Counted from the first letter of the stretch, positions 1,735 to 25,923 are shown. The stretch: 32,000 nt of DNA from Selenobaculum gibii (GCF_030273445.1 NZ_CP120678.1:320401-352400), one strand, 5' to 3'. Translations and numbers: made by a program. Notes: generated from the letters alone by a model not told the origin.

Positions 1735-2034
1735 ATGCTTCATAAGAAAAGTATATTACTCATAATATTTAGCTTATTATTTGTATTTGGTGTTTGGACG
1801 GTTGCTGCTGGATCTTTAGTAAATCAGCAAGCAGTTTTGTCAGGAGAAGTTGTTAGTGCTGTAGCTGTTGGAGAGCATGTAGTAGAAGGAAGTGAACTGG
1901 TAAGAGTAAAAACTCTTGCAGGATCAAATACTGCTGCTCGTTCGAATACAAGTGGAATTGTTCGAGAGGTTTTAGTAACTCCAGGTAATAAAATTAATAG
2001 TGGTGATGTAGTGGTTCGTATTGAGGCACAATAA
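1735..2034 (+). CDS. Small membrane-anchored protein with biotinyl/lipoyl-like (barrel-sandwich hybrid) domain
   Basis: The ORF-track start (GTG 1726) lies inside the RBS AAGAGG (1721-1726); ATG 1735 is 8 nt downstream of it. There is an N-terminal hydrophobic anchor (ILLIIFSLLFVFGVWTVAAG). GEHVVEGSELVRVK...SGIVREVLVTPGNKINSGDVVVRIE resembles lipoyl/HlyD-type hybrid barrels, but no modifiable MKM/AMKM lysine motif is present. The 3' end abuts or overlaps the next gene. Confidence 0.65.
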   Translation: MLHKKSILLIIFSLLFVFGVWTVAAGSLVNQQAVLSGEVVSAVAVGEHVVEGSELVRVKTLAGSNTAARSNTSGIVREVLVTPGNKINSGDVVVRIEAQ

Positions 2035-2041
2035 TGAGAGG

Positions 2042-3955
2042 ATGAATAGGTTGGTACAATTTTTAAAAAATATGGTATGGGCAATTTTATTGCTTATATA
2101 TATGCCCATCGCTTGTGTACAAGCATCCCCAGAGATTATGACGGTTGATCAATTGCAGCCGGGTATGCATGGAGTTGCAAAGACAGTGATTAGAGGAACT
2201 GCTGTAGAAAGTTTTGCTGTAGAGATTATTGGAGTATTACGCGATGGTGCGCCAGAAGGTATGATTTTAGGTCGTGTATCAGGTGATGTGATCAATCAGA
2301 CTGCTGGTGTATTACAAGGAATGAGTGGGAGTCCAGTATATATTGATGGAAAACTAGTTGGAGCAATTTCTGGCGGTTGGCCGAGTATTGATGCAAGAGT
2401 TTGTGCAATTACGCCAATTGCGGAAATGCTAAAAATATGGGATATGCCAGATGATAAAGGCGAGAAAAAGATTCATCAAGTAGAAGTGAATGCGCCTTTG
2501 GAAACTGCAAATGTAGAAAAGGATAAAGTTTCCGCACTGGAAAGCAAAGAGGAAAGTAAGGATTTATTTTTAGAAAAAGAAAAAGAAGTTGTTGAGGCAG
2601 TTAAGCAAGTAGACCCGGAAAAGGCTTCAACTATGTTAGTTGCTACAGGTTTTACTCCAGCGGCATTCTCGATGCTTGAGGAGAAGTTGGCACCTTTGGG
2701 AATGAAACCATACCAAGGAATTGGCTCGGCGAATGATTCGTATGCTCCAATTCAATTAGAACCGGGAAGTGCTTTGGGTGTTGCGCTGGTTCGAGGCGAT
2801 TTTAGTTTGGCTGCTACTGGCACAGTTACTGCAATTGAGGGAAATAAGCTTGTTGCTTTTGGACATCCTTTTTATCGTCGCGGTAATGTAAATTATTTTT
2901 TAACGGATGCAGTTGTATTGACATCAGAGCATGGATTAAATGGTGGTTTTAAATTCGGGCAGACAGGAAATTTAATCGGTGTAATTAATCAGGATCGTAC
3001 TGCGGGAATTGGTGGCGTCATTGGCAAATACCCTAGCGTAATTCCGATGCAGATTACGGTAAAAGATAAACAATTAAATAAAGATAGTGTTTATAACCTT
3101 CAACTGGCATATGATGAGGAGCTTACTGCGCCATTAGCCGCGTCTATGGTGTATAATGCAATTGATAAAACGATGGATCGTATAGGCGAAAGCACGGCAA
3201 AAATTGATTTTGAAATACAAGCAAATTCGGTTCCGGGTGGAGTTATTAAGCGTGATAATATGTATTATAGTATGCAAGACTCTGGACAGTTAGCCGTTGG
3301 GGAGCTGTTTCAAGCGTTGAATATGTTAAGCACAAATACGTTCCATGAAATTGATATTTTTAGTGTAAAAGCAAATGTTGAAATTGATCAAACGCGTCGT
3401 ACGGCATCTATTATTAGTGCTATACCGAAAAAGACAGCGGTTAAGCCAGGTGAGACTGTAGATATAGCAGTGAAATTGAAGCCTTATCGTTCAGAGGAAG
3501 TCACTGTGAATGTTCCTTATACTGTTCCTGCAAAACAACCGAAAGGAACAATGATGCTTGAGGTGCGTGGGGGCGGATTGATTTCGCTGGCGCAGCTTAT
3601 GATGAAACAGCAGGGAATTGACCTCAGCGCAGAAGAAGACAAAACGAGACCTTTAGAAGAAGATATTAAAAAATTCTTGGAAGCAAATAAAAATAATGAA
3701 ATTGTTGTGGCCCCTGGCGTTATGAATCCAAATTTACCAAATCAAAATAAGCCAATCCAAGAACCTCAACAAGTCCAAGAGCCAATAAATCCAGTAGTCC
3801 CGGAGGAAAGTTCTAAGACAGAAGATGTTTCGGAAAGAAAAATGGGGACGATTGGAGATGAAAAATTAGAAGAAGAGAATGTGCAATCTAAGAACAGGAA
3901 AACCGTTGATTATATTATTGATAACATTCAAAGGATTTCGCTAAAAGTAGAATAA
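2042..3955 (+). CDS. Secreted peptidase S55 (SpoIVB-family) domain protein, long non-sporulation-type architecture
   Basis: Serine motif GMSGSPVYIDGKLVGAIS is preceded by FAVEIIGVL. The signal peptide runs from ATG 2042 (MNRLVQFLKNMVWAILLLIYMPIACVQA/SP). An E/K-rich insert lies at about nt 2441-2630, and the C-terminal tail is P/Q/E-rich. No PDZ-like segment was recognised. The start is uncertain (TTG 2021 or ATG 2042). Confidence 0.75.
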   Translation: MNRLVQFLKNMVWAILLLIYMPIACVQASPEIMTVDQLQPGMHGVAKTVIRGTAVESFAVEIIGVLRDGAPEGMILGRVSGDVINQTAGVLQGMSGSPVYIDGKLVGAISGGWPSIDARVCAITPIAEMLKIWDMPDDKGEKKIHQVEVNAPLETANVEKDKVSALESKEESKDLFLEKEKEVVEAVKQVDPEKASTMLVATGFTPAAFSMLEEKLAPLGMKPYQGIGSANDSYAPIQLEPGSALGVALVRGDFSLAATGTVTAIEGNKLVAFGHPFYRRGNVNYFLTDAVVLTSEHGLNGGFKFGQTGNLIGVINQDRTAGIGGVIGKYPSVIPMQITVKDKQLNKDSVYNLQLAYDEELTAPLAASMVYNAIDKTMDRIGESTAKIDFEIQANSVPGGVIKRDNMYYSMQDSGQLAVGELFQALNMLSTNTFHEIDIFSVKANVEIDQTRRTASIISAIPKKTAVKPGETVDIAVKLKPYRSEEVTVNVPYTVPAKQPKGTMMLEVRGGGLISLAQLMMKQQGIDLSAEEDKTRPLEEDIKKFLEANKNNEIVVAPGVMNPNLPNQNKPIQEPQQVQEPINPVVPEESSKTEDVSERKMGTIGDEKLEEENVQSKNRKTVDYIIDNIQRISLKVE

Positions 3956-11600: not shown

Positions 11601-12959
11601 GATGTTCAACAGATATTGTTGACGAAAGGCGAATATAAAGCTAGTGCGTATGGTATTGTCCCATTGGCGGCATTAACAAAAACAGATAATGTTGATGTAA
11701 AAGAGCAAATGAATTTGAAAGTTTCATTAGATCAGGCCGATTTAAGTATTTTACCGTTTTTGACGAAAGAAATAGAATGGGGCAGGGGAAATACAAATGG
11801 AAATTTAGTTATCACAGGAAGTTTATTGCAACCGTTAATTAATGGAAACATTACCGTGAATGATGGGACTCTAAAATTGAAACATTTGGGGAAACCAATC
11901 CAAAAAATGGCGGTTGATATTCAATTTCTAAATGATAGAATAGATGTACAAACTTTTGATGGTGTTATGGGAGATGGATCTTATCAATTGCGTGGACGCG
12001 CTTTTATTGGTGCTAACGGGCTAAAAGATTATTCCCTCACTCTAAATTTAAATGATTTAGACATTGTGAATAAGTATTATACGGGTCCATTGAATGGTTT
12101 GCTATCATTAGAGGATGATAAAGGAGTTCCTAAAGTTGTCGGAAATGTCGATTTAGCAAATTGTACAGTTGATATACCGATGCTTCCGGATACAGAAGAT
12201 GGTTTTCCTAATGTGAAATTGGATGTTACTGTTAATGCAGGTAAAAAAGTTCGTCTTTATAACTCAATGTTATATGATATTTTAGTTGAAGGACATGCTA
12301 ATTTTAGTGGATCAACGCAGCATCCACGGGCATCGGGGGAATTTTCTGCAATTCGAGGCAATGTAAACTATTTAAAGACTTCGTTTAAAATTCGTGAAGG
12401 CACCGTGTTATTTAATCAAGCGGGTTCCTTTATTCCAAGTATTAGGCTAAGCTCTGATACGCAATTGCAACGAACAAAAATTTATTTGGATATAGATGGT
12501 CCTGTTTCAAATATGCAGGTCAAATTATATTCTAATCCAGAGTTAAGTGAACAAGAAATCTTATCGCTGCTTACTTTAAGAAGTGCTTATGACAGCAAAG
12601 AGGAATCTGGAATTGGTAAAGACGAGTTGAATGCAATTGTTAATCTAGGTCTAAGTGCAAGCTTTTTTAGTGAGTTAGAGAACATTGCAAAGAGTGCATT
12701 AGGTGTAGATGAGTTTAATGTTGTTAGGGATACTTTATCGTATACTGAAAATGGAAGTAATTATAATCGTGAAGTGTATAATTTAGAAATAGGTAAATAT
12801 GTTACAGATAAAATGATGCTAAAATATACTACAGGAATTGATCATGAAGACTATTACTTTGGTATACGATATGATTTTAGTAATAGAATTAGTTTTACAA
12901 GTGATATTGATCAAGATAATAATAAACGATTTGGTATTGAGGCTAGATTTAAATTCTAG
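8685..12959 (+). CDS. tamB: TamB / AsmA-like translocation and assembly module protein (DUF490 C-terminus)
   Basis: The start is reassigned to ATG 8685 (GGAGGAG at 8673-8679). It has an N-terminal TM anchor (LFVAVLLVIALTIGACFWYI). About 1400 aa of repetitive beta-rich sequence follow, with recurring 'G.l.g.l...G....P...G.i...' units. The TamB-type C-terminus reads LSEQEILSLLTLR...FGIEARFKF. Confidence 0.88.
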   Translation: MRQRLFVAVLLVIALTIGACFWYIKSQAFTTSAANVIAGEITRTLDTRVDIASVTVDSPTTLALTNVTIQDKMGTAILESGRIEVSFSPLAVLMGESVVKSISQVEVDSPEVNLVRRNNQEWNYMDFMNSDEKSELDFYGKVKFSQAIINVEIDKKRLKLEDISGSLDLANQPSIHFDIIAKQADGDIKFNGVWGGKNKAVSVEANNFTLDNYLEFLPEEFAIQVNSGKLTSFKATVTSDDNGNLKVNGEALLLGISLTVEKTEVDHIDGFVLFNESEIRIFSRGQIAKQPIVLKGTTDLNMIEPMLNLELSSKSFDVTKVLENFPVKGTFNFVANIQGNFKEPLITGNFSSEELIYQEYIAHNVVADLRFGDDVLYIDSLTTDLCEGKANIQGEFNTKTEKYGITLMGKNINLDLLPEYNQGLSGYMDLDVRAKGQGLNDINNVIVSGKTTVHDGSYAGVNFTGVDAGFYKDANYIAVDYVNVNLPQGQVTLTGQINEQNINLVMQGNNVALAQFLQNRSEFDLSGNASFHGNIRGTLEAPTVFVNVLAENGSLLYQPYQKLTGILESDFETINIKNIEMTDGISTHKVQGSIGLKNENPLNLTVVSTQARAENLIKILLPGEDLTGNIDNTVVLRGTLENIDAEGNIFFNDGSYRGMLLREAHGKYKRKDGVTSIEDFSISSPNLNVKISGLISAGNALDFDIIADDIDLVQLKLNLPYKAEGKAKFVGKLKGHVDNPNFYGTLTADRTVFNQNELRNINGKIRYANDEIELDSFNFMQGDGSFDLSANFNLSTKRVRGDLVVKNSDVAGLLEILNVKQDWLFGKLNGDIHLEGSTEKPKVRINGTIENGFLKKYPLDDVSLDVFVDGRVINIEKFYAKQGQGILVAKGTADLDGDLNFEVAGQSIHAALLTDLMDLDIDTKGTLDFGSQVFGTASSPKANLSMEIKGGGIGGATFDSLYGMCTLNEGIIDVQQILLTKGEYKASAYGIVPLAALTKTDNVDVKEQMNLKVSLDQADLSILPFLTKEIEWGRGNTNGNLVITGSLLQPLINGNITVNDGTLKLKHLGKPIQKMAVDIQFLNDRIDVQTFDGVMGDGSYQLRGRAFIGANGLKDYSLTLNLNDLDIVNKYYTGPLNGLLSLEDDKGVPKVVGNVDLANCTVDIPMLPDTEDGFPNVKLDVTVNAGKKVRLYNSMLYDILVEGHANFSGSTQHPRASGEFSAIRGNVNYLKTSFKIREGTVLFNQAGSFIPSIRLSSDTQLQRTKIYLDIDGPVSNMQVKLYSNPELSEQEILSLLTLRSAYDSKEESGIGKDELNAIVNLGLSASFFSELENIAKSALGVDEFNVVRDTLSYTENGSNYNREVYNLEIGKYVTDKMMLKYTTGIDHEDYYFGIRYDFSNRISFTSDIDQDNNKRFGIEARFKF

Positions 12960-12963
12960 CGGA

Positions 12964-13617
12964 ATGGATGAGAAGATGGATTTACGTAATTATTTAGAGG
13001 AATTAAATAAAATACGGCTATTAGAACAAGAGGAAGAACTAGAACTTTGGAAGAGCTATAAGCAGCAAAATGATTTGTCATCACGTGAATTATTAATATC
13101 TTCTTATCAGCCTTTGATATTTAAAGTAGTTACACAACTGCATTTAAATGACAGTCTTCTTATGGATGTTATTCAGGAAGGGACTGTCGGGTTGATTGAG
13201 GCGGTAGAACGCTATGAATATGAGCGAGGCGTAGCATTTAGTTTATATGCTACGCATCGTATTCGTGGAAGAATGTTGAATTTTATTCAGAAGGAATATA
13301 AGCGTAATTTGACTTATATTGACAATCCAATGTATAATGAGGATTGTGTTTTGGACTGGAGGGAGTCTTTAGTTGATGATGCCTTGCCAGTCTGTGAGCA
13401 AGTTGAAGATCATGTTCTTATGGAGCAGATAAAAAGTGCTGTAAGCCGCTTGCCGCGAAAAGAGCAGCTTGTCATTGATAGTGTTTATCTTAAGGAACAG
13501 GAAACGAAGACAATTGCCCAAAATATGGAGCTAAGTACTACTCATATTTATCGTTTGCAAAAGCAAGGGATACGTCGAATTCGTGGAATGCTATCAAAGT
13601 TTATGCAGCATTGGTAA
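12964..13617 (+). CDS. Sigma-70 family RNA polymerase sigma factor, group 3 (FliA/WhiG-like)
   Basis: Region 2 reads DVIQEGTVGLIEAVERYEYERGVAFSLYATHRIRGRMLNFI; the RIRG motif is typical of FliA/SigD-type sigmas. The region 4 HTH reads LPRKEQLVIDSVYLKEQETKTIAQNMELSTTHIYRLQKQGIRRIR. The ORF-track N-terminal extension (12838-12963) overlaps tamB and is rejected. The start is ATG 12964 or ATG 12976. Confidence 0.85.
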   Translation: MDEKMDLRNYLEELNKIRLLEQEEELELWKSYKQQNDLSSRELLISSYQPLIFKVVTQLHLNDSLLMDVIQEGTVGLIEAVERYEYERGVAFSLYATHRIRGRMLNFIQKEYKRNLTYIDNPMYNEDCVLDWRESLVDDALPVCEQVEDHVLMEQIKSAVSRLPRKEQLVIDSVYLKEQETKTIAQNMELSTTHIYRLQKQGIRRIRGMLSKFMQHW

Positions 13618-13780: not shown

Positions 13781-14371
13781 ATGACTGATTTAAAAAAGAA
13801 GTTAAAAGGTCATCTTTGTTCTGCTAGACATTGGTTAGGCAAGGCCGAAGAATCTCTTGAAAAAGATAGAGACATTCGTGCAGAGTTAAATCTAATGTTA
13901 GCGCAAGCAGAGATTACTCATGCGAAGGAAGTTAAGAGTGAAAGCAAAGATAGAAGAATAAATTATCGAGGTCTGCTGATTCGCAGTATACTTTTAATAG
14001 GGCTTATAAGTTTTGGGATAGTATCTGGTTTTGGTGGATTTATTGGGACTCAGCAGAAACTGTCTAATGAGTCACAGGAAATAGTGCCGAACTATAGGTC
14101 GACACTGTCGGAAGAAGTCCCTTTAAATGGACAAGTTGTACCTAAAATACAGGAAACTTCGTCGTTTGATTCTGGAGGACCTGATTTAGCGGGGCAACAT
14201 AATGAAATTGAATCGGCTAAAAAAATGCCGATGAAGCAAACGGTAGTTGTTGAAGAAACTATACCTAAAGCTGAGGCAAAGGTTTCGGTATCAGAACAGC
14301 CAGTACGGCTGCAACCGCGTGAAATGCAAGAATTGATTAGTGCGGCTGGAAAATCTTTACGTGGAGAATAA
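13781..14371 (+). CDS. Single-pass membrane protein of unknown function (RseA-like topology; candidate anti-sigma or BAM-associated factor)
   Basis: An RBS (GGGGATGAGG) precedes ATG 13781. About 64 aa of helical cytoplasmic N-terminus come first, then one TM helix (LLIRSILLIGLISFGIVSGFGGFIG), then ~105 aa of low-complexity periplasmic tail. No family was recognised. The gene ends 21 nt before bamA. Confidence 0.6.
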   Translation: MTDLKKKLKGHLCSARHWLGKAEESLEKDRDIRAELNLMLAQAEITHAKEVKSESKDRRINYRGLLIRSILLIGLISFGIVSGFGGFIGTQQKLSNESQEIVPNYRSTLSEEVPLNGQVVPKIQETSSFDSGGPDLAGQHNEIESAKKMPMKQTVVVEETIPKAEAKVSVSEQPVRLQPREMQELISAAGKSLRGE

Positions 14372-16201: not shown

Positions 16202-17512
16202 GTGATCATAATTGTAAGGAAAATAATAGCTCAAATTTTTTATGTTTGTTTTATCATGCTATCAGCAGTTGCCGTTGTGTCAGCTGCTGATAGTGCAAGT
16301 GTTATAGAGACAATCGAAGTACAGGTTATACCCTTACAAGAAGAGCATCCTATTTCAGATAAAATTGCTAGACGAATGCAAGCTAGTGTTTATACTATTG
16401 GGGACAATGTATTAAATGGGCATAGAGTAGAGGAAATTGAAAATAATAAATTAGGTTATGAAGTTTTAATACAGGATGTTTTTAATCGAATTTTGATTGG
16501 CTACTCTGTACAAAAAGTCAATTTGGAAATTGGTAATCATACAGTGATAAAAGTCATGGTATTTCCTTGGCATAATGTGATTCATAATGTTAATGTTGAT
16601 GTTGAAATAAATGGAGTAAGTGAAGATATTAAACCGTTAATTATGCAAGATATACAAGGAATTGAGAAAATCTTTTTGAATGTATTGCAAGAGTTACCTA
16701 TTGACGCAGTAGAATGGGTAAATGGGATATTAAGGACAGGGCTAAATGAATTTTTATCTAGTCGTATTCCAGAGTTTAATGCATCTTTTACTCTTGTTGC
16801 TGATGAAAACAATAGAGTGGATATAAAAGTTGATTTATATCCTAAAGGACAATTGATCCGAGAGACCAATTTACAAATAAAGTCTGGTACAATTCCGAAT
16901 ACGATCAGGCTAATGTTTCGTCCAGAATTAAATAAGCAACTTGAAGGTTTAGTTGGTTTACCGGTAAGGTTTGTTCAACGACATCAAAGCTATTTTATTG
17001 ATAAATTAAATTCAGTTACTTTTGATAATAAAAATTTACAAAAGTATAAAGTCAAATCAGCGGTTGAAATGGTTGCTGATCATCAAACGCAAGTTTTGTA
17101 TACGATGGACAGCAGTGAGTATATTTTAACAGTTGAAGGATATTTAGATGTTGGCAAGGAGGAACGCAATACCTCTATTAAAGCGCATGCAGGAAGAATG
17201 TTAGACAAAGAAAATGAGTTGTTTTTAGAAATGGATTTTTTCCCGCATCAAATGGAATGGGATTTTTATCCGGGTATTTTGCATAGCCTTACGTCAAAAA
17301 CTAAAATTGGATTTAAATATGACATTGATGAGCGTAGAGGAATTCTTTTGGCGAATCAGATACTCAGCGATCGATTTTCAGCTAGAGTAGAACATGTGCC
17401 AAGCATCCAATTTACTGAGTTTGGGCTCAGATATCATTTGCATGATTTTTTTGATGTGGAATATGTAATTAATGATGATGAAAAATGGCTTAGGCTAATT
17501 GGAGTTTTATAA
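16202..17512 (+). CDS. Secreted protein of unknown function between bamA and skp
   Basis: 436-aa ORF. From GTG 16202 the N-terminus is a signal peptide (MIIIVRKIIAQIFYVCFIMLSAVAVVSA/ADS). No convincing RBS is present, so the start is uncertain (next candidate ATG 16256). The sequence is beta-rich with amphipathic strands near the C-terminus (KIGFKYDI, FSARVEH, FGLRYHL, FDVEYVI). No family was recognised. Confidence 0.65.
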   Translation: MIIIVRKIIAQIFYVCFIMLSAVAVVSAADSASVIETIEVQVIPLQEEHPISDKIARRMQASVYTIGDNVLNGHRVEEIENNKLGYEVLIQDVFNRILIGYSVQKVNLEIGNHTVIKVMVFPWHNVIHNVNVDVEINGVSEDIKPLIMQDIQGIEKIFLNVLQELPIDAVEWVNGILRTGLNEFLSSRIPEFNASFTLVADENNRVDIKVDLYPKGQLIRETNLQIKSGTIPNTIRLMFRPELNKQLEGLVGLPVRFVQRHQSYFIDKLNSVTFDNKNLQKYKVKSAVEMVADHQTQVLYTMDSSEYILTVEGYLDVGKEERNTSIKAHAGRMLDKENELFLEMDFFPHQMEWDFYPGILHSLTSKTKIGFKYDIDERRGILLANQILSDRFSARVEHVPSIQFTEFGLRYHLHDFFDVEYVINDDEKWLRLIGVL

Positions 17513-17552: not shown

Positions 17553-17581
17553 TTGTATAATGAAAACGGGTTTGATATAAT
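17553..17581 (+). promoter_or_regulatory. Candidate extended -10 promoter for the skp paralog array
   Basis: TTGTAT (17553-17558), a 17-nt spacer, then TGaTATAAT (17573-17581), a perfect extended -10. It lies about 80 nt upstream of ATG 17661. Confidence 0.55.
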
Positions 17582-17660
17582 AAATTATGCTTTTGGCCTA
17601 TTGGCAAAGCAATTTAAATTTCATATTTTATGCCTTGAAGGGCAGGAGGAGAATCTTAGA

Positions 17661-18128
17661 ATGATTAAATTTGAGAAAAAACAGATTAAATTTATTAGCA
17701 TCGGTATTGCTTTGGTTTTTGTTTTTAGTGTGGTTGCTCTTGCAGTATCCCAGTCTTCTGTAGGATTTGCCGCAGCAGGCAATTCTTCGAATGTTGGTGT
17801 AGTAAATCATCAACTACTTGTGTCCCAGCATCCTGACATGGCAACTGCTAAAACTGCAATGGAAGCTGAAGTTGAACAAGCAAAAAAAGATTTTGAAACA
17901 AAATCTGCAAATATGAATGACCAAGAAAAACAAGCTTATTATCAACAAACACAACAACGTTTGGCGAATAAAGAAAGAGAATTGATTGCTCCTATTTTTG
18001 ATAAAGTAGATGCAGCAATCAAAGCAGTTGCTGAAGCTAAAGGATTATCTGTTGTTTTAGATAAAGGCACTGTTGTTTATGGTGGACAAGATATTACAGA
18101 TGAAGTTGTAAAAAAGTTTTCTAAATAA
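17661..18128 (+). CDS. skp: Periplasmic chaperone Skp/OmpH family, paralog 1 (cleavable signal peptide type)
   Basis: The start is reassigned to ATG 17661 (AGGAGGAG at 17644-17651). It has a signal peptide/hydrophobic segment ending SVGFAAAG. OmpH pattern: VGVVNHQLLVSQHP...coiled coil...AKGLSVVLDKGTVVYGGQDITDEVVKKF. Confidence 0.85.
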   Translation: MIKFEKKQIKFISIGIALVFVFSVVALAVSQSSVGFAAAGNSSNVGVVNHQLLVSQHPDMATAKTAMEAEVEQAKKDFETKSANMNDQEKQAYYQQTQQRLANKERELIAPIFDKVDAAIKAVAEAKGLSVVLDKGTVVYGGQDITDEVVKKFSK

Positions 18129-18159
18129 TTAATGGTAATAAAATAAAATTTAGAGTTTA

Positions 18160-18187
18160 TGCCGAGCTGGGGAGACCTCGCTCGGCA
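18160..18187 (+). other. Stem-loop between skp paralogs 1 and 2 (weak attenuator/processing site candidate)
   Basis: TGCCGAGC (18160-18167) and GCTCGGCA (18180-18187) form a perfect 8-bp stem with a 12-nt loop. Only a weak ATTTATT tract follows. Confidence 0.3.
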
Positions 18188-18209
18188 ATTTATTAGAAAG
18201 GGTGGGCAG

Positions 18210-19169
18210 ATGGAAAAGCGTAAATGGATGATCGTTGCTTTAATTGCTATAGTTGCTTTTGGGGTAGTAGGTTATGCTGTATCCTTACAATCGAATAAGA
18301 ATTCGACAAAACCTGATGCGCAAGCGGTTGAGAATCAGACCGATATTGGTGTTATTGATATGAGTCAAGTCCTTAAAGCTCACCCGAAATATGGTCAAAC
18401 TATAGAGTTGCAAAAAGAGCTAAATACACTTAAGGCAGAAATTGATAATAAATTGAATTTTATCAATCATCAAGCTATGCCGAATTCTATTGCAGTTGAC
18501 GAGAAAGCAATTTTATCGTCGCAAAACCAACTTGGACAACAACAGCTTATTGCTAAACATGCAGAGCTCAATGAAAAGCTACAAAAAAAAGAAGATGAAT
18601 TACGGCAGAATTTTAATGAGCAAATGAACAAAGATGTAGCGGTTATTGATGAAGAATATATGCCTGAAATTTTTAATTTAAAGTTAAAAATGAAAACTTT
18701 GCAGATGACGGAAGATGCTTTTAATCAGATGCAAGCAAAGATTAATGAGTTGCAAGAGGCTCGCAATAAGAAAGTCCATGAAAAACAGCAGCAGTATTTA
18801 AGTCAGCTTGGGGAACAGATGAAGGCTGAGCAACTGAAAGCAACAGAAGAGTTTAACCTTTTTGCGCAGCAAGTTGAAAAAGAAAATAAAGAATTTAGCA
18901 GTCAAAAAACAGCAGGCTTAACTGAGCGTAACAATAATGTGGAGAATCAAGGAAATGAAAGCGTTGCTCAAATTGCAGAATTAAAACAGCAAGTTGCAGA
19001 CAAAGAAGTTGAATTACAAAAAATTCAGAATGAAATTCTTGATGAAGCGACAAGTCTCGTTGCTAAAGTTGCGTTAGAAAATAATCTATCAGTGGTTATT
19101 AATAAGGTGAAAGTTAATATTAATGGATTAGATATTACTGATTTGGTAATTCAAGGGTTTAACAAATAA
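18210..19169 (+). CDS. Skp/OmpH-family protein, paralog 2: membrane-anchored with about double-length coiled coil
   Basis: The start is reassigned to ATG 18210. It has an N-terminal TM helix (WMIVALIAIVAFGVVGYAV). The OmpH N-motif is IGVIDMSQVLKAHPKYG and the C-motif is ENNLSVVINKVKVNINGLDITDLVIQGF. These are separated by ~230 aa of Q/E/K-rich helical sequence, against ~100 aa in the flanking paralogs. Confidence 0.75.
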   Translation: MEKRKWMIVALIAIVAFGVVGYAVSLQSNKNSTKPDAQAVENQTDIGVIDMSQVLKAHPKYGQTIELQKELNTLKAEIDNKLNFINHQAMPNSIAVDEKAILSSQNQLGQQQLIAKHAELNEKLQKKEDELRQNFNEQMNKDVAVIDEEYMPEIFNLKLKMKTLQMTEDAFNQMQAKINELQEARNKKVHEKQQQYLSQLGEQMKAEQLKATEEFNLFAQQVEKENKEFSSQKTAGLTERNNNVENQGNESVAQIAELKQQVADKEVELQKIQNEILDEATSLVAKVALENNLSVVINKVKVNINGLDITDLVIQGFNK

Positions 19170-19232
19170 ATAAAACGTATATAATAATTAAATATAAATA
19201 AATTTTTTATGGATAGAAATGGAGATGGAATA

Positions 19233-19658
19233 ATGAACTTACATTTAAAACGTTTATTATTATTAGTTGTAGTTGTTATTATGGCTGTTTTTATTGGGGG
19301 ATGCTCAAATGAAAAAGTCGGTGTCGTTGATGGCAGTAAAATTTCCGATACCCCAAAAATTCAAGAAATGCAAAAGGATTTACAAGCAAAATTAGATGAA
19401 AAAGCAAAAGAGTTGTCTACGCAACTTGAGCAAGAAAAGGCTAACCTTAGCCCAGAAGATTATCAAAAACGTTATGTATCACTTCGCACGGAATTTAATA
19501 CGCTACAAGAGTCTTATCAAAAAGATATTTTAAATGCTGTAAATGAAGCGATTTCTGCTGTTGCAAAAGAAAAGAGTATTTCTACAGTGTTATACAAAGA
19601 CGCGGTAGTACATGGCGGAATTGATATCACAGATGATGTCGTGAAAAAATTACAGTAA
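19233..19658 (+). CDS. Skp/OmpH-family protein, paralog 3: predicted lipoprotein
   Basis: The start is reassigned to ATG 19233 (GGAG at 19221-19224). The lipoprotein signal has a lipobox (LLLLVVVVIMAVFIGG/C). OmpH pattern: VGVVDGSKI...coiled coil...EKSISTVLYKDAVVHGGIDITDDVVKKL. Confidence 0.8.
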   Translation: MNLHLKRLLLLVVVVIMAVFIGGCSNEKVGVVDGSKISDTPKIQEMQKDLQAKLDEKAKELSTQLEQEKANLSPEDYQKRYVSLRTEFNTLQESYQKDILNAVNEAISAVAKEKSISTVLYKDAVVHGGIDITDDVVKKLQ

Positions 19659-20760: not shown

Positions 20761-20790
20761 TTTGGTTATTGAGAAATGTGTGGTGATATC

Positions 20791-21672
20791 ATGTATGGAG
20801 TAATGATAATTTTAAGTAAATTTGTTTGCGTTTTGCCGTTAAAGCTGCGAATGTGGATTGGAAATTTGATCGGGAATCTTACATGGCTACTTGTACCTAA
20901 AAAACGTAAGATAATGGCAATGAGAAATATTCAATTGTCACTTAATACAACTCTGCAAGAAACGCAAATCATTGCAAAGGCAAGTTGGACGCGATTTGGC
21001 AGAATGATTATGGATGTTTTGGCAATTCCAATTTTACCAAAGGAAATTAAGCAACGTGTTCGTTTTATCGGGATAGAAAATATGGACAAGGCTTTAGTTG
21101 ATGGGAATGGTGTAGTTTTAGCTACTTCCCATAGTGGAAACTGGGAAATGCTTGGAGCGGCATTAGCTACGAGTGGATACCCGTTAGTTGGGGTTGCACA
21201 GAAACAGGCGAATTTGGCAATGGATAGGTTTATTAACGAATATCGTACATTGTCGGGGATGCATGTTACATATAAGAGCGGTGTCAGGGAAATGATTCGA
21301 TTAATGGGTCAAGGTATGATCATTGGAATATTAATGGATCAAGATGCAGCGGAAGATGGCGTTATTCTGCCGTTTTTTCATCGAGAGGCATCTTGCCCAC
21401 AGGGGACAGCTTTTTTGGCGAGAATGAAAAAAGCACCGATTGTGCCAACTTTTATTACGGAAGATAAAGATGGATATTATACGATAACTTGTCAGGTGCC
21501 TGTTTATGTAGAAGAAACAAATGATAAAACTAAAGACATAATCAGGACGATACAGTTATTGAATACGATTATTGAAAGTCATATTCGGAAACATCCTGAA
21601 GAATGGTTCTGGCTTCATAATCGCTGGAAATATACTGAGGAAACGCTAAAAAATAAAGTAGACTTGATTTAG
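20791..21672 (+). CDS. lpxL: Lipid A late (secondary) acyltransferase, LpxL/HtrB family
   Basis: N-terminal anchor (IILSKFVCVLPLKLRMWIGNLIGNLTWLLV). Catalytic HX4E motif HSGNWE. The family-typical C-terminus reads HPEEWFWLHNRWK. The start is ATG 20791 or ATG 20776. Confidence 0.8.
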   Translation: MYGVMIILSKFVCVLPLKLRMWIGNLIGNLTWLLVPKKRKIMAMRNIQLSLNTTLQETQIIAKASWTRFGRMIMDVLAIPILPKEIKQRVRFIGIENMDKALVDGNGVVLATSHSGNWEMLGAALATSGYPLVGVAQKQANLAMDRFINEYRTLSGMHVTYKSGVREMIRLMGQGMIIGILMDQDAAEDGVILPFFHREASCPQGTAFLARMKKAPIVPTFITEDKDGYYTITCQVPVYVEETNDKTKDIIRTIQLLNTIIESHIRKHPEEWFWLHNRWKYTEETLKNKVDLI

Positions 21673-21796: not shown

Positions 21797-21800
21797 AAAA

Positions 21801-21839
21801 AATACCAATCCGCTAAAAATATGGATTGGTATTTTTTTA
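21801..21839 (+). terminator. Rho-independent terminator (bidirectional-looking: A-run 5', T-run 3')
   Basis: AATACCAATCC (21801-21811) and GGATTGGTATT (21823-21833) form a perfect 11-bp stem with an 11-nt loop. It is flanked by AAAAAA on the 5' side and TTTTT on the 3' side. Confidence 0.85.
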
Positions 21840-21941
21840 CTTTTTAAATCGTGTAAATATTGTGTATCGAATCCAGCAGATTTATCAAAACTATAATGAA
21901 GTAAAATTATCTTGTTTTGATTTGGAAATGGAGTGCTGGGG

Positions 21942-24218
21942 ATGAAAAATAATTTTTTTCGTAACGATATATTTATCTTATTGTTAGTTAGCATATTATT
22001 AAGTGCTTTAGTTGCTAAAGGAATATCTTTGGGTGCTAATTTTTACTTTCAGGAAACACTGACAAGTTTAACCGGGGACTATGGAGAATACGATTTGCTT
22101 GTTCAAGTTAGAGAAGAGAGTAGAGAAGAAGGGAAAATACAAATGCAACAGATGCTGGAGACAAATTTTCCTGGATCAAAATTTAAAGAGGCACCATCGA
22201 TTGGAGGTAAAGCCAATTTTTTCATTGCATTGCCTCCAGGAGGCAAAACGAAAGAAATTTATGAAAATATTGATCGTTTATTTTCAGCGATTTATGGAGT
22301 TACGGGTGTAAGTATTATAACTGAGCCACGCCTAAGCATTCGTGGGGTTCCAAATGGTGCTGTAGATATGCTGATGAAACGATTTGAGGCAATTGATGGT
22401 GTCAATTTTGTCTATCGACTTGGGACATCGATTGGAATTGTCTTAGAGGGTGTTGACAAAATTGCGGCGGCAACTGAGCGGGTGGAGAATGAATTAAACT
22501 CTTATCAAGTACTAGAAGTCAATTTTCCGGCAGGGGCAGAGGCTGAAAATCCAGTTCGTTTGGCAGGAATTATTGTCGATGATATAACAGAAAAATTACA
22601 TCCTACGATGCTTCATTATGTTTCTATTGATGAAAAAGCAGATGAGATGGCTTATGCTGTAAGCACGATGCAGGAAATGAGAAAGTTTTTTCTTGCCTAT
22701 ATGACGAAGATTACGATCTATCCTGGGGAGTCAGGTAAAATTCGCAAAGGTGATTTGATGCTTCTGCAAGGGACCTCGCTTCGTGAACCGCAAATTGGCG
22801 ATGATTTTTTGCGAGGAAATATTATTGCAATTGTAGAAGAATTAAATAATGATGGTACAGCACAGGCTGTAATCACGCAAGGGGATTCTGAAAAGATAAA
22901 GGATCATCGAATTTATAAAATGGAAGGGGAAAAAGTACAAGGCTTTGTAGGGAAAGTTGAATATCAAAATCCTCGGATAAGATTAGCAAATGCAATTGAA
23001 AAAGCAGCTGGATTATTTGAAAAAGTTCCCGATCTAGCAAAAGATACTGTGCAGGTCAGTAAAACAGTGCGGCAGGCGATTGACGGATATAATAACAATA
23101 ACCAGCGTTTAGAAAAAACATTGAATAGAATGAATGATGCAGTAGCCATATTAAATAAAACCACGATTGATATTAGTTCTATTGATGTAAAAGGCGTCAA
23201 GAATCAATTGGAGAGTTCTATAAATTCTATTAAAACATTGCATACAGGGTTGAAATTGATTCAAATTTTTAATGCCGACGTTACCTCCTCTGTACAAGCA
23301 TTGGAGGTAACAAAAAATAAATTAGAAAATTTTCAGCAATTGTTAACCGGCATGGATGAGATGCATGATGATGCAGTAAAGGCACAAAGCGTTCTTAATG
23401 GATTAGCACAGGAAGGAAAAGGCATTACAGAAATCTTAAAAAGCATTAACCATAGTTCGGCTGAAAATAATTTGATGAACTTAGAAACAAAACTTACGGA
23501 TATTGCCGAAGCTGATTTAAAGCAAGCAGCAACAGAATTGCGTTATATGGCAGCATCAATTCCCAATATGAAAGATGAAGAAATTTATGCTTCTGTTAAG
23601 TTATTGGATAAATTAATGGCGGGACATTTTTCTTTGGGGCAAAGATTACAATTCCTTTTAGATCGTAATATTGCATTAACAGATTTAAAACCAATCGTTA
23701 TTCAGTCGATAGGTCATGAAAATGTTGGTGTATTGCAAGCTGATTTAGGCGTTATAGAGCCCAATATTTACTTGCAGGTATACCAAGTCTTAAATGAAGT
23801 TCAAGCAGTTTTAGCCGGGCTTACAGCGCTTGTGTTGACATTGGTTTTACTGGCGCTAGATCATACCTCTATCATGGCAGCGCTAAAGATGCGAAGAGAT
23901 GATAAAAAAAATGGGTTCTTCACGACTGATAAAATTTATGGAATGGCTGTAGGCGCAATTCTGCTAAGTACGATATTTTTATTAGCGGGTGGTGGAATCC
24001 CGTATGTTCCATTTTATATGATCCCAATGATTGGTGCTTTGTTAGGTATATTTATGGATTTTTATAGTGAAAAAATAAGTCCAATAGAAAGAGAGGAAAT
24101 ATTAGCAGCAGAATCCCTAGGGATGAGCTTTGATGAAATCATGCGAGAAATTGTTATTCCAAATGCAAGACCGGGATTATTACAGAAATTGAATCGTCGG
24201 AGATTGTTATTCAAATAG
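21942..24218 (+). CDS. Atypical ABC membrane subunit: TM1 + ~590-aa periplasmic domain (alpha/beta, beta-rich and long helical parts) + 3 TM + C-terminal EAA-type coupling loop
   Basis: ATG 21942 lies 8 nt after TGGAG. TM1 is IFILLLVSILLSALVA. No hydrophobic segment occurs until VLAGLTALVLTLVLLAL, IYGMAVGAILLSTIFLLAG and FYMIPMIGALLGIFMDF. The tail LAAESLGMSFDEIMREIVIPNARPGLL resembles the EAA loop of type I importer permeases. The protein ends 11 aa later. Confidence 0.7.
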   Translation: MKNNFFRNDIFILLLVSILLSALVAKGISLGANFYFQETLTSLTGDYGEYDLLVQVREESREEGKIQMQQMLETNFPGSKFKEAPSIGGKANFFIALPPGGKTKEIYENIDRLFSAIYGVTGVSIITEPRLSIRGVPNGAVDMLMKRFEAIDGVNFVYRLGTSIGIVLEGVDKIAAATERVENELNSYQVLEVNFPAGAEAENPVRLAGIIVDDITEKLHPTMLHYVSIDEKADEMAYAVSTMQEMRKFFLAYMTKITIYPGESGKIRKGDLMLLQGTSLREPQIGDDFLRGNIIAIVEELNNDGTAQAVITQGDSEKIKDHRIYKMEGEKVQGFVGKVEYQNPRIRLANAIEKAAGLFEKVPDLAKDTVQVSKTVRQAIDGYNNNNQRLEKTLNRMNDAVAILNKTTIDISSIDVKGVKNQLESSINSIKTLHTGLKLIQIFNADVTSSVQALEVTKNKLENFQQLLTGMDEMHDDAVKAQSVLNGLAQEGKGITEILKSINHSSAENNLMNLETKLTDIAEADLKQAATELRYMAASIPNMKDEEIYASVKLLDKLMAGHFSLGQRLQFLLDRNIALTDLKPIVIQSIGHENVGVLQADLGVIEPNIYLQVYQVLNEVQAVLAGLTALVLTLVLLALDHTSIMAALKMRRDDKKNGFFTTDKIYGMAVGAILLSTIFLLAGGGIPYVPFYMIPMIGALLGIFMDFYSEKISPIEREEILAAESLGMSFDEIMREIVIPNARPGLLQKLNRRRLLFK

Positions 24219-24231
24219 AGGGGATGATTTT

Positions 24232-24975
24232 TTGCTGGAAATCAGAGATTTGACAAAAGACTTTGGTGATATTAGGGCTGTTGATCACTTAGCATTACAT
24301 GCGGACAAAGGAGAAACAGTTGTGATTATGGGGCCGTCTGGCTGTGGGAAGTCTACAACAATCCGAATGATCAATCGTCTAGTTGAACCTGACTTTGGCA
24401 CTGTTTTTTTCGATGGCATAGATATTACGGGGTTGCATAAAAATGAATTATTGGCAATGCGAAAACGAATTGGGTATGTTTTTCAGCATTTTAATTTGAT
24501 TGCTAGGCTTACTGCACTGGAAAATGTGATGCTAGGATTAGTGATGGGGCGGGTTTCTTATGATGAGGCAAAAAAACGTGCTGTTGCAATTTTAGAAAAA
24601 GTGGGGCTGGGAAGATATATGGATTATAAACCGAGCGAACTATCGGGTGGGCAGCAGCAACGCGTCGCAATCGCTAGGGCTTTAGCCTTTGAACCAGAAT
24701 TAATTTTATGGGATGAACCAACTGCTTCGCTTGATCCAATTTTAGTTCGGGAAGTTTTAGTCATCATGGAAGAACTGGCAAAATATAGAGCTAGTACAAT
24801 GCTCGTAGTAACGCATGAGTTGTCTTTTGCATTAAAAGTGGCTGATCGTATTCTTCTCATGAATAAAGGGAAGATTGTAGAGAGTGGAAAACCTATTGAG
24901 ATTTTCACGAATCCACAGTCGACAATAGGAAAAACATACAAAGATCTCATTGATTATCAAATGAATACAATTTAA
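24232..24975 (+). CDS. ABC transporter ATP-binding protein (importer-type NBD, GlnQ/PhnC/ProV-like)
   Basis: TTG start 13 nt after the upstream stop, with RBS AGGGG. Walker A GPSGCGKST; NRLVEP; Q-loop region FQHFNLIARLTALENV; signature LSGGQQQRVAIARA; Walker B LILWDEPTASLD; H-loop VVTHE. Confidence 0.88.
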   Translation: MLEIRDLTKDFGDIRAVDHLALHADKGETVVIMGPSGCGKSTTIRMINRLVEPDFGTVFFDGIDITGLHKNELLAMRKRIGYVFQHFNLIARLTALENVMLGLVMGRVSYDEAKKRAVAILEKVGLGRYMDYKPSELSGGQQQRVAIARALAFEPELILWDEPTASLDPILVREVLVIMEELAKYRASTMLVVTHELSFALKVADRILLMNKGKIVESGKPIEIFTNPQSTIGKTYKDLIDYQMNTI

Positions 24976-25098: not shown

Positions 25099-25923
25099 AT
25101 GCAGTATCAAACTACGATTGCAAAGAATGCGACATATACAGGTATTGGTTTGCACTCGGGATGTGAAGTGACGGTTACAATAAAACCAGCGCCTGCAAAT
25201 ACGGGAATTGTTTTCGTTCGCGTAGATTTGCCAGGATGTCCACACGTTGCTGCTATTTCTGACAATGTTACTGCTACAATGCGAGCAACAACGTTGGAAA
25301 ATGGCGAGGCAAAAGTTTTTACGGTGGAACATTTGTTGGCGGCATGCAATGCAATGCAGTTGGACAACTGCTATATAGAAATGAATGCACCAGAACCACC
25401 GGTGGCGGATGGAAGTGCGATTGTTTTTGTTAATTTAATTAAAGATGTAGGACTTGTAGAGCAAGAGGCCAAGCGTCAGGTTATTGTAATTGATAAAGTG
25501 TATACAGCACGCGAAAAAGATAAATTTATTACGGTTATTCCTTATGATGGTTTTAGAATTTCATTTACTTCAGTAAATCCACATCCGATGTTGGGTGTAC
25601 AGTATTGTGATATTGAGATCAACGCGGAGACTTTTACTAAGGAAATTGCACCAGCACGTACGATTGCCTTTACAAAGGAAATTGAAGCATTGCAAAAGAT
25701 GGGGTTAGGTTTAGGTGGTTCTATTGAGAATGTCATTGTATATGATGAGGTAAAAGCGTTAAATCCACTTAGATATGAAGATGAGTTGGTTCGCCATAAA
25801 GTCTTAGATGTTGTCGGGGATATGCGTTTAGCTGGAAATATACGTGGGCATATCATTGCAGTGAAGTCAAGTCATGCGCTTAATACATCATTGGCAAGAA
25901 AAATAAAAGGTTTCGTGGAGTAA
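25099..25923 (+). CDS. lpxC: UDP-3-O-acyl-N-acetylglucosamine deacetylase LpxC
   Basis: RBS AGGAGG. YQTTIAKNATYTGIGLHSGCEVTVTIKPAPANTGIVF, TVEHLLAA and HKVLDVVGDM...IAVKSSHALN are hallmark LpxC motifs. Confidence 0.95.
   Translation: MQYQTTIAKNATYTGIGLHSGCEVTVTIKPAPANTGIVFVRVDLPGCPHVAAISDNVTATMRATTLENGEAKVFTVEHLLAACNAMQLDNCYIEMNAPEPPVADGSAIVFVNLIKDVGLVEQEAKRQVIVIDKVYTAREKDKFITVIPYDGFRISFTSVNPHPMLGVQYCDIEINAETFTKEIAPARTIAFTKEIEALQKMGLGLGGSIENVIVYDEVKALNPLRYEDELVRHKVLDVVGDMRLAGNIRGHIIAVKSSHALNTSLARKIKGFVE

Follow-up and report, generated by a model that had tools for sequence, protein, structure and literature searches.

An ABC gene pair between lipid A genes of Selenobaculum gibii

We analyzed a stretch of 32,000 nucleotides (nt) from Selenobaculum gibii (GCF_030273445.1, NZ_CP120678.1:320401-352400), referred to below in its full length as the window, with positions counted from its first letter. 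Our subject is a pair of adjacent genes, at 21942 to 24975, that encode a membrane subunit and an ATPase of the ATP-binding cassette (ABC) type in the midst of lipid A genes. We conclude that the pair is an ABC system with a new subunit architecture, which is real, conserved, and unannotated. An earlier note on this DNA, made from the sequence alone, had described a membrane subunit of 758 amino acids (aa), an ATPase gene 13 nt downstream, and flanking lpxL-like and lpxC genes. Open reading frame (ORF) calling returned the same layout, and Pfam identified both flanks. The genes, and the site that precedes the pair, are as follows.

20776-21672, + strand: gene for an LpxL-type lipid A acyltransferase, upstream neighbor (PF03279, E = 7e-51; NF006270)
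21797-21837, + strand: hairpin (16 bp) plus U-run downstream of the lpxL-like gene, probable intrinsic terminator
21942-24218, + strand: membrane subunit gene, 758 aa, ATG start; four predicted transmembrane (TM) helices, N-in/C-in (ORF, hydropathy, end-to-end homolog alignment, AlphaFold)
24232-24975, + strand: ABC ATPase gene, 247 aa, TTG start (PF00005, E = 2e-36)
25099-25923, + strand: lpxC, downstream neighbor (PF03331, E = 1e-96)

A ribosome-binding site (AGGGGA) lies in the 13 nt between the stop codon of the membrane subunit gene and the start of the ATPase gene, and an in-frame GTG at 21933 is an alternative start for the former in the ORF reading. The hairpin at 21797 to 21837 folds with -22.7 kcal/mol (z = -4.9), and none of 200 shuffles was equally stable. 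Given this probable terminator, the ABC pair probably opens a new transcription unit. No terminator-like site was found in the 123 nt between the ATPase gene and lpxC, and to judge from the sequence, the unit headed by the pair may run on into lpxC. The terminator itself is composed of an A-tract, the hairpin, and a U-tract, a symmetry that suggests possible termination in both directions. There were no Rfam matches in the window.

In order, the window cluster encodes MlaE, MlaF, MlaD, TolC, TamB, a sigma-70-family protein, a 196-aa ORF, BamA, a 436-aa ORF, three OmpH/Skp-like proteins, LpxD, the LpxL-type acyltransferase, and the ABC pair, followed by LpxC, FabZ, LpxA, LpxI, LpxB, and an MsbA-like exporter (ABC_membrane plus ABC_tran). 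This gene set is an outer-membrane/lipopolysaccharide (LPS) cluster typical of two-membraned Firmicutes. Every large ORF of the window is on the + strand, and GC skew is positive in all 1-kb bins (0.17 to 0.36), indicating that the whole cluster lies on one replication arm and is co-oriented with it.

Topology and end of the membrane subunit

The predicted parts of the membrane subunit are listed below.

21951-22043, + strand: TM1 (aa 4 to 34; a single helix to aa 44 in the model), from hydropathy and AlphaFold
22074-22094, + strand: GDYGEYD motif (aa 45 to 51), on the predicted periplasmic face just past TM1
22095-22697, + strand: alpha/beta region (aa 52 to 252) of repeated beta-alpha-beta-beta, ferredoxin-like units, from the models
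22698-22970, + strand: small all-beta domain (aa 253 to 343) with six strands; predicted local distance difference test (pLDDT) 83 to 90 in the domain model
22971-23621, + strand: helical heptad-like insert (aa 344 to 560), a predicted long hairpin of ~100 Å with one 69-residue helix
23622-23765, + strand: second beta-alpha-beta-beta unit (aa 561 to 608), leading into TM2, from alignment and AlphaFold
23766-24062, + strand: TM2-TM4 region (TM2, aa 609 to 650; TM3, aa 662 to 682; TM4, aa 691 to 707)
24063-24215, + strand: cytoplasmic tail with an EAA-like coupling loop (aa 708 to 758), with no TM helix following

By hydropathy, the TM segments of the subunit span aa 4 to 34, 616 to 649, 663 to 691, and 685 to 707, and no hydrophobic segment lies between aa 34 and 616 (~580 residues). 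This is the arrangement given in the earlier note, namely, a single N-terminal TM helix, a long nonhydrophobic stretch, and three closely spaced TM helices. An AlphaFold model built with 18 homologs had a pLDDT of 75.9 and a predicted template modeling score (pTM) of just 0.39, so its domains are credible but their mutual arrangement is not. The model comprises a helix (aa 5 to 44), beta-alpha-beta-beta units (52 to 252), a beta domain (256 to 342), a near-continuous helix (344 to 560) that includes the 69-residue one, and a beta-alpha-beta-beta unit (568 to 606) that runs straight into the 42-residue TM2 helix (609 to 650); helices 662 to 682 and 691 to 707 and three short helices within 717 to 756 complete it.

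TM2 has a hydrophobic core at aa 616 to 638 and a conserved D640-H641 at its cytoplasmic end. It is joined to TM3 by a K/R-rich cytoplasmic loop of 22 aa with a conservation of only 0.25, and the short periplasmic loop between TM3 and TM4 carries a conserved I-P-Y motif. Across 32 homologs, the mean number of K plus R was 6.1 in loop 639 to 661, 0.6 in loop 683 to 690, and 6.7 in the C-terminal tail, and the N terminus of the subunit is also rich in basic residues. This distribution supports an N-in, C-in membrane subunit with its EAA-like loop predicted in the cytoplasm, in agreement with the N-in topology first proposed from the positive loop. Scored by segment, the cytoplasmic tail was the best conserved (0.63), the last 45 residues being the best conserved of all. 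The stretch from aa 35 to 51, with the GDYGEYD motif, is among the two best-conserved stretches of the subunit (0.65), and G45, G48, Y50, and D51 of the motif are invariant in 18 sequences.

The size of the module formed by the TM helices and the loop is constant across the family (median of 150 aa in 149 full-length members). In the family hidden Markov model alignment of these 149 homologs, the median extension past the last residue of the window protein was 1 aa. Long extensions occurred in six ABC ATPase fusions (252 to 282 aa) and as one 62-aa tail (P0113). That tail left aside, no membrane helix follows the EAA loop in the 149 homologs. A frameshift or mis-assembly hiding TM5 and TM6 is ruled out, since the terminus is conserved family-wide and the six fusions place the ATPase right after the loop. 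The truncation is genuine, as the earlier note had held.

An importer-type coupling loop and ATPase

The coupling-loop residues of the cytoplasmic tail are E719, A722, G727, P740, and R743-P744-G745. An 11-aa basic end follows ...ARPGLL, and the protein stops 18 aa past the proline of the loop. When aligned with MetI, A722, G727, and P740 are in register with the Ala, Gly, and Pro of the canonical EAA motif, the pattern A-x4-G-x12-P falling on MetI residues 112 to 148. Pfam searches with the window protein alone gave UPF0014 at E = 3e-4 (20.5 bits; threshold, 22.6) and BPD_transp_1 at E = 8e-3 (16.3 bits; threshold, 26.4), both below their gathering thresholds. BPD_transp_1 matched 7 of 32 diverse members at E < 0.01 (best, 2.7e-4). 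When a profile of the C-terminal ~165 residues was run against the PDB sequences as a whole, its top three matches were two MetI entries and an Art(QM)2-type amino-acid permease (E = 0.008 to 0.009), with PotC as the fourth (E = 0.49). The PDB alignments cover the EAA loop and the preceding helix.

We also compared this C-terminal profile with E. coli membrane subunits from MG1655 by hhalign. The probabilities were 78.7% for MetI, 55% for ArtQ, 17% for PotI, 3.4% for ArtM, 2.4% for LptG, 1.2% for LolC, 0.7% each for MacB, LolE, and FetB, 0.5% for LptF, 0.4% for FtsX, and 0.1% for MlaE. Together, these sequence comparisons support the identification of the C-terminal loop as a coupling loop of the type I importer kind. 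The signal is confined to ~37 to 70 residues, so just the coupling loop can be called type I-like. The loop, which had been recognized by eye, thus stands as importer-type, except that its first Glu is not in register with the canonical motif.

All ATPase motifs are intact (Walker A, aa 34 to 41; Q-loop, 83 to 85; LSGGQ, 137 to 141; Walker B, 157 to 162; H-loop, 193 to 195), and judged by these motifs the ATPase is competent. Its NCBIfam scores were 245 bits for GlnQ, 230 for ProV, and 222 for TcyN, with EhuA and PhnC also among the best families, compared to 181 for LolD and 176 for FtsE. By blastp, it scored 184 bits against MetN and 165 against ArtP, compared to 138 for LolD, 131 for FtsE, 129 for MacB, and 110 for LptB; the MetN and ArtP scores exceed that for MlaF too, and the margins are moderate. 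Both sets of scores agree with the importer-like character first assigned to the nucleotide-binding domain. A role as the LptB or LptFG motor is ruled out, given the 110 bits to E. coli LptB and the presence nearby, in related loci (L060, L063, and L065), of genuine LptB genes with 252 to 281 bits. We also rejected an anti-phage defense system, for which there were just generic ABC-ATPase matches. The two subunits are partners, because they are adjacent everywhere and occur as natural fusions: six cluster representatives are membrane subunit-ATPase fusions, and in the 967-aa fusion of Carboxydochorda, the ATPase is 46% identical to that of the window.

The periplasmic part

About 570 residues between TM1 and TM2 are predicted to be periplasmic. 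The three sections that had been distinguished in them (alpha/beta repeats, a beta-rich stretch, and a heptad-like helix) are all found in the AlphaFold model. Conserved motifs include TEPR at aa 127 to 130, inside the alpha/beta region, and G-x-I-E-P at aa 603 to 607. The helical insert has an a/d hydrophobic occupancy of 0.5 to 1.0 and is both the least conserved (0.32) and the most length-variable region.

The periplasmic part of the window protein belongs to no Pfam or NCBIfam family, nor did Pfam detect one in the 32 members, and no relative was found among the PDB sequences. A whole-protein profile search against the PDB sequences was swamped by coiled-coil matches, and the domains were searched one by one. 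A separate model of aa 40 to 345 (pLDDT 78.7) had weak Foldseek matches of the tandem ACT/ferredoxin-like kind (best E = 2e-3), with no substrate-binding protein, MacB, LolC, or FtsX fold among them. For the full model, the best Foldseek matches were MmpL5 (9mvz_D; E = 4e-8; 566 aligned columns) and MmpL4 (9syt), and further matches were Wzc, chemoreceptors, and generic coiled coils. Fused substrate-binding domains, which the earlier note had weighed for this region, are ruled out: the 32 members matched no such Pfam family, Foldseek no such fold, and the PDB sequences no such relative.

The pair accompanies LPS genes in three deep lineages of Bacillota

There is no Pfam or NCBIfam model for the family, and every named member is entered as "hypothetical protein"; the closest database proteins, 97% identical, are such entries of Anaerosinus/Selenobaculum gibii. 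Term matching found no description of the pair in the literature searched, which included parts of PMC5007114, PMC5491611, PMC10665443, and PMC13018214. The system is thus as undescribed as it had looked at the outset. A word-indexed protein search returned 25 homologs of 754 to 885 aa that align end to end, and a second such search with a 32-sequence profile added nothing further. An exhaustive search of 1.84 billion cluster representatives yielded 179 proteins at E ≤ 1e-3. Finally, 140 relatives were confirmed in a scan of 185,579 species, each represented by a single genome, and the locus counts that follow refer to the best 80 of these 140.

A first group among the 80 loci belongs to Negativicutes, with 35 to 44% identity, and its carriers are of the Sporomusa, Pelosinus, Anaerospora, Dendrosporobacter, Propionispora, Lucifera, and Massilibacillus kind. 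The second group consists of deep "Bacillota bacterium" metagenome genomes with 26 to 30% identity. In 64 of the 80 loci, the membrane subunit and the ATPase are followed in order by LpxC, FabZ, LpxA, and LpxI, and usually then LpxB. Three loci are cut by a contig end and have LpxD and LpxL upstream. In one (L063), from a deep lineage, the pair adjoins a genuine LptB gene, whose product is 58% identical to E. coli LptB, together with DUF3084 and a RuvX-like gene, which the consulted part of PMC5007114 gives as two "hypothetical" markers of the Firmicute outer-membrane cluster.

The remaining 12 loci are second copies, each from a Sporomusa- or Pelosinus-type genome that also has an lpx-linked copy. 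In a neighbor-joining tree, they form the sister clade of their group's lpx-linked copies, a placement that points to a lineage-specific duplication and to the lpx-linked position as ancestral. The second copies (L036 to L042, L044, L046, L047, L049, and L050) lie away from the LPS cluster in variable neighborhoods. They have nothing but the pair in common, and no conserved third component was found. In Sporomusa rhizae (L046), the second copy directly follows, on the same strand, a set of TetR, membrane-fusion-protein, and AcrB-type RND genes; we rejected this set as a conserved partner, as it is not conserved elsewhere.

The fusion is the form seen in Limnochordia. The gene order in Carboxydochorda subterranea (complete genome, CP141615.1; L088) is Skp, LpxD, a YjbH-like protein, an unknown gene, LptF/G, an LptD-like gene, LptC, LptA, the 967-aa fusion, and then, after a gap of 22 nt, LpxC, FabZ, LpxA, LpxI, LpxB, and MsbA. 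Behind lptC-lptA, at the place of lptB in E. coli, lies the fused gene, and no LptB gene is visible in this 19-kb locus. The same locus contains another LpxB-like gene, which is divergent (417 aa), and encodes a protein of 800 aa that weakly resembles LptD; its YjbH-like protein comes after lpxD.

The association of the pair with LPS genes has persisted over lineages whose LpxC proteins are themselves just 39 to 47% identical. Together, these results support that the homologs found are restricted to LPS-bearing Bacillota, with lpx/lpt-linked copies across three deep lineages. The genomic link to LPS genes suspected in the earlier note was supported, both by the 64 loci with the pair upstream of lpxC and by the Limnochordia fusion between lptA and lpxC. 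Two labels call for comment. A 7.8-kb contig assigned to a "Patescibacteria group bacterium" (JBLNBS010000137.1; L079) carries the pair with lpxC, fabZ, lpxA, and lpxI and is most likely mis-binned Bacillota. A metagenome labeled Syntrophothermus sp. (JBLNCV010000026.1; L053) has the pair with lpxC, fabZ, lpxA, lpxI, and lpxB, which reflects either a wrong label or an LPS cluster in a lineage usually treated as single-membraned.

Accession numbers in the consulted part of the PMC5007114 supplement give a view of other genera. Consecutive numbers place exactly two genes between the acyltransferase and lpxC in Acetonema, Pelosinus, and Sporomusa; going by position alone, EGO62941 and EGO62940 are the candidate genes of Acetonema longum. 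By the same numbering, no gene lies there in four Veillonella species, Acidaminococcus intestini, three Phascolarctobacterium species, Succinispira, Anaeromusa, Megamonas, Mitsuokella multacida, Selenomonas ruminantium, and Zymophilus, and in Halanaerobium praevalens the lpxD-fabZ numbering leaves room for lpxC alone. Absence in these genera is read from the numbering and from their being missing among the 80 loci, rather than from a direct genome search. The earlier note had linked the pair to a lineage without Lol, and Negativicutes indeed have no LolA according to the consulted part of PMC5007114. This link fails, as the numbering suggests that the pair is absent from most Lol-less Negativicutes; its apparent absence from Veillonella, Selenomonas, Acidaminococcus, and relatives implies that it is not a general substitute for Lol.

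Comparison with known systems

Like the type I permeases MetI, ArtQ/ArtM, and PotC, the membrane subunit has a coupling loop directly after an out-to-in TM helix and a partner ATPase of the MetN/ArtP/GlnQ kind, and its TM1 to TM4 correspond in number and orientation to TM1 to TM4 of a six-helix permease. It differs in lacking, throughout the 149 homologs, the two path-lining helices that come after the loop, in the ~570 periplasmic residues inserted between TM1 and TM2, in scoring below the Pfam threshold, and in the register of the EAA Glu. A binding protein is missing as well: there is no substrate-binding-protein gene in the 32-kb window, as the earlier note had remarked, and no binding-protein Pfam family in the 32 members.

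With the type VII systems MacB, LolCDE, and FtsEX, the pair shares four TM helices, a large extracytoplasmic domain between TM1 and TM2, and alpha/beta units joined directly to long TM1 and TM2 helices, and the likely absence of a transmembrane substrate path would fit work in the periplasm. In contrast, there is no detectable relationship in sequence or fold, the ATPase comes from another subfamily, the membrane subunit has a long helical hairpin built in, and coupling would use the EAA-type loop at the C terminus in place of a coupling helix between TM2 and TM3. At E < 0.01, Pfam matched neither FtsX nor MacB_PCD in the 32 members, hhalign probabilities were at most 1.2% for MacB, LolC, LolE, and FtsX, and homology to MacB/FtsX was not detected. 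The MacB/FtsX-like character proposed earlier is one of layout only (TM1, a big periplasmic domain, and TM2 to TM4).

The best structural matches, MmpL5 and MmpL4, are lipid and siderophore exporters with a periplasmic alpha/beta domain carrying a long coiled coil, which PMC12501195 describes as a tube for transport across the periplasm. Common to them and the pair are the succession of a TM helix, an alpha/beta periplasmic domain with a long helical hairpin, and a second TM helix, as well as their occurrence in bacteria with an outer membrane and no Lol. MmpL5 and MmpL4 differ in using proton-motive force, in having 12 TM helices, and in their unrelated sequence (12% identity) and low template modeling scores (TM-scores), and neither the window protein nor the 32 members had MMPL, ACR_tran, or Wzz Pfam matches. 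The resemblance to MmpL and Wzc is one of layout, an analogy rather than family membership. LptB2FG and MsbA share the genomic neighborhood and the probable pathway of the pair. They differ from it in that its membrane subunit has no LptF_LptG or ABC_membrane domain and its ATPase is not LptB, a protein listed for Negativicutes in the consulted part of the PMC5007114 supplement.

Proposed working of the pair and alternative readings

The descriptive statements of the earlier note all hold, the EAA register excepted, and its structural reading is largely right in the light of the ORFs, hydropathy, AlphaFold model, and K plus R counts. Its general hypothesis of a periplasm-directed, LPS-linked machine is plausible on these sequence-based grounds. 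As to function, the genomic position of the pair suggests an unrecognized outer-membrane/LPS step. The account that we propose, tentatively and with a little less than even confidence, is that a type I-derived ABC motor drives a periplasmic arm that acts on LPS or another outer-membrane lipid. The system would be a two-component machine, most simply of two membrane subunits and two ATPases with eight TM helices. It would descend from the type I importer lineage, having kept the ATPase and the EAA-type loop, lost the two following helices, and gained ~570 periplasmic residues between TM1 and TM2. There would probably be no type I translocation path, because the helices that line it are missing and no third gene supplies them. 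ATP binding and hydrolysis would instead act on TM4 and TM2 by way of the C-terminal coupling loop, and the motion would reach the attached beta-alpha-beta-beta units along the long helices TM1 and TM2. The periplasmic domain and its ~100-Å helical hairpin would thereby be moved, a mechanotransmission analogous, not homologous, to that of MacB, LolCDE, and FtsEX. Because of the genomic context, LPS, lipid A, or another outer-membrane lipid would most likely be the object, handled in the periplasm, and the task might be lipid extraction and hand-over or the control of an envelope partner.

Several observations weigh against this proposal. The canonical EAA Glu is out of register, with the MetI Glu aligned to L721 and the invariant E719 lying two residues upstream. 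Type I permease homology is marginal (E ~0.008) over its 37 to 70 residues, and the TM helices are not demonstrably related. The arrangement of domains is uncertain in the AlphaFold model. The helical insert ranges from 60 to 261 aa across the 149 homologs, which argues against a fixed periplasm-spanning length. To judge by the accession numbering, many Negativicutes that make LPS lack the pair, which therefore is not a core step of LPS biogenesis. With MsbA and LptB2FG already there, no step in LPS transport is obviously vacant. Lastly, a distance of ~100 to 300 nt to lpxC in many loci leaves cotranscription unproven.

An ordinary type I importer with fused binding domains in the style of GlnPQ or OpuA, handling a small solute and placed in the LPS cluster by chance, would suit the EAA-like loop and an ATPase whose best families are GlnQ, ProV, TcyN, EhuA, and PhnC. 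We give this reading next to no credence, and it is effectively refuted by the want of a substrate-binding Pfam family (32 members), Foldseek fold, or PDB sequence relative, by the loss of the two post-loop TM helices in 149 members, and by lpx/lpt synteny across three deep lineages. A highly improbable account is that the pair is a true, divergent type VII member, for example, a cryptic Lol or FtsEX-like system, with a convergent EAA likeness. It draws on the four-TM topology, on the beta-alpha-beta-beta units carried by long TM1 and TM2 helices as in the Porter halves of MacB, and on the missing LolA of Negativicutes (PMC5007114, in the part consulted). It conflicts with the lack of FtsX or MacB_PCD matches in the 32 members, hhalign probabilities that reach 1.2% at most compared to 78.7% for MetI, top Foldseek matches of either model that include no MacB, LolC, or FtsX structure, ATPase scores that favor MetN and ArtP over LolD, FtsE, and MacB, and the absence of the pair, by the numbering, from most Lol-less Negativicutes. 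Somewhere between these and our proposal stands an adaptor that spans the periplasm, or a conduit, for the export of a glycolipid or polysaccharide; its arm, resembling a polysaccharide co-polymerase or MmpL and fused to an ABC motor of its own, would meet an LptD, TolC, or OPX-like partner in the outer membrane. MmpL5, MmpL4, and Wzc, which Foldseek returned, share the succession of TM helix, alpha/beta base, long helical hairpin, and second TM helix; the Limnochordia fusion follows lptD-like, lptC, and lptA genes; and the window cluster contains a TolC gene. We nevertheless regard such a conduit as unlikely, as TM-scores did not exceed 0.17 and the matches are partly generic coiled coil, the hairpin varies more than 4-fold in length, the two hairpins of a dimer mismatch a trimeric TolC, and no conserved outer-membrane partner lies by the paralogous pairs.

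Two further readings place the pair in control of the envelope. As a sensor or regulator of lipid A synthesis, its periplasmic domain would monitor the envelope (LPS load, or outer-membrane distance or integrity) and its ATPase cycle would tune LpxC or FabZ, much as YejM/LapB-FtsH does in E. coli by other means. The position immediately upstream of lpxC-fabZ in nearly all lineages, the lack of an evident translocation path, and the conserved polar D640-H641 at the cytoplasmic end of TM2 are in its favor. Still, the chances of this reading appear small, because the cytoplasmic surface beyond the ATPase is a tiny, poorly conserved 22-aa loop, paralogous pairs occur away from lpx genes, and many LPS-making Negativicutes do without the pair. 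An FtsEX-like control of cell-wall or envelope remodeling by means of the built-in coiled coil, perhaps linked to sporulation, is quite improbable; an example would be the conversion of the outer spore membrane to the outer membrane in spore-forming two-membraned Firmicutes. The pair occurs in the spore-forming genera Sporomusa, Pelosinus, Acetonema, Anaerospora, Dendrosporobacter, Propionispora, and Lucifera and is absent, by the numbering, from the nonsporulating Veillonella, Selenomonas, and Acidaminococcus groups. The sporulation gene SipL is near the pair in one deep-lineage locus, and the FtsEX partners EnvC, PcsB, and CwlO are coiled-coil proteins, which would accord with remodeling. 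However, phylogeny confounds the correlation with sporulation, neither a hydrolase or LytM domain nor a conserved partner is present, and the genome associates the pair with lipid A and Lpt genes instead of cell-wall or sporulation genes.

How two-membraned Firmicutes build their outer membrane is used to study the ancestral bacterial envelope and the loss of the outer membrane. Several parts known from Proteobacteria are missing in at least one lineage: Negativicutes lack LolA, and the lineages examined lack LptE, BamB-E, MlaA, and MlaC. Here, a conserved, unnamed ATP-driven system stands between lipid A synthesis and Lpt genes in Negativicutes, Limnochordia, and metagenome-only Bacillota, and its conserved place in three deep lineages makes it a concrete candidate for an unrecognized envelope function. 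Rather speculatively, and as a doubtful rather than a probable scenario, it may be an unrecognized ABC class, with a type I-derived motor on a four-helix anchor and an arm reaching into the periplasm, from the LPS cluster of the two-membraned Firmicutes' ancestor, which served an LPS or lipid step without a Proteobacteria counterpart and was later lost in host-associated Negativicutes. Such a step could consist, for example, in extracting LPS or lipid at the inner membrane, handing it over, or removing it, or in powering a bridge to the outer membrane. The ABC superfamily would gain a new architecture, with an importer-type loop and ATPase on a four-helix anchor of MacB-like topology, and if this is true, mechanotransmission-type layouts can arise from the importer lineage.

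Other genes of the window

The 196-aa ORF (13781 to 14371, before bamA) and the 436-aa ORF (16202 to 17512, after bamA) belong to no Pfam or NCBIfam family. They lie at the positions of SonB and SonA, respectively, described for Acetonema longum in the consulted part of PMC13018214 as a putative lipoprotein (SonB) and a protein with POTRA plus a 10-strand barrel (SonA). The 436-aa ORF has homologs at the same position in most related loci, with 21 to 48% identity. The sigma-70-family gene (~12838 to 13617; regions 2 and 4) is found between tamB and the sonB-like ORF. It scored below every equivalog threshold, with weak best matches to the FliA/WhiG, RpoH, and SigK/SigF types, and since the listed start of its ORF falls within the end of tamB, the gene probably begins further downstream.

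Upstream of mlaEFD, a 467-aa protein (256 to 1659) combines AMIN domains with a NAGPA phosphodiester glycosidase domain, and a 644-aa protein (2021 to 3955) has only a short SpoIVB-type peptidase S55 segment (E = 7e-11). The three consecutive OmpH/Skp-like genes (17553 to 19658) share a C-terminal ...G.DITD.V(V/I)... ending; the product of the middle one has 336 aa, twice the usual length, with a Q/E/K-rich helical middle part.

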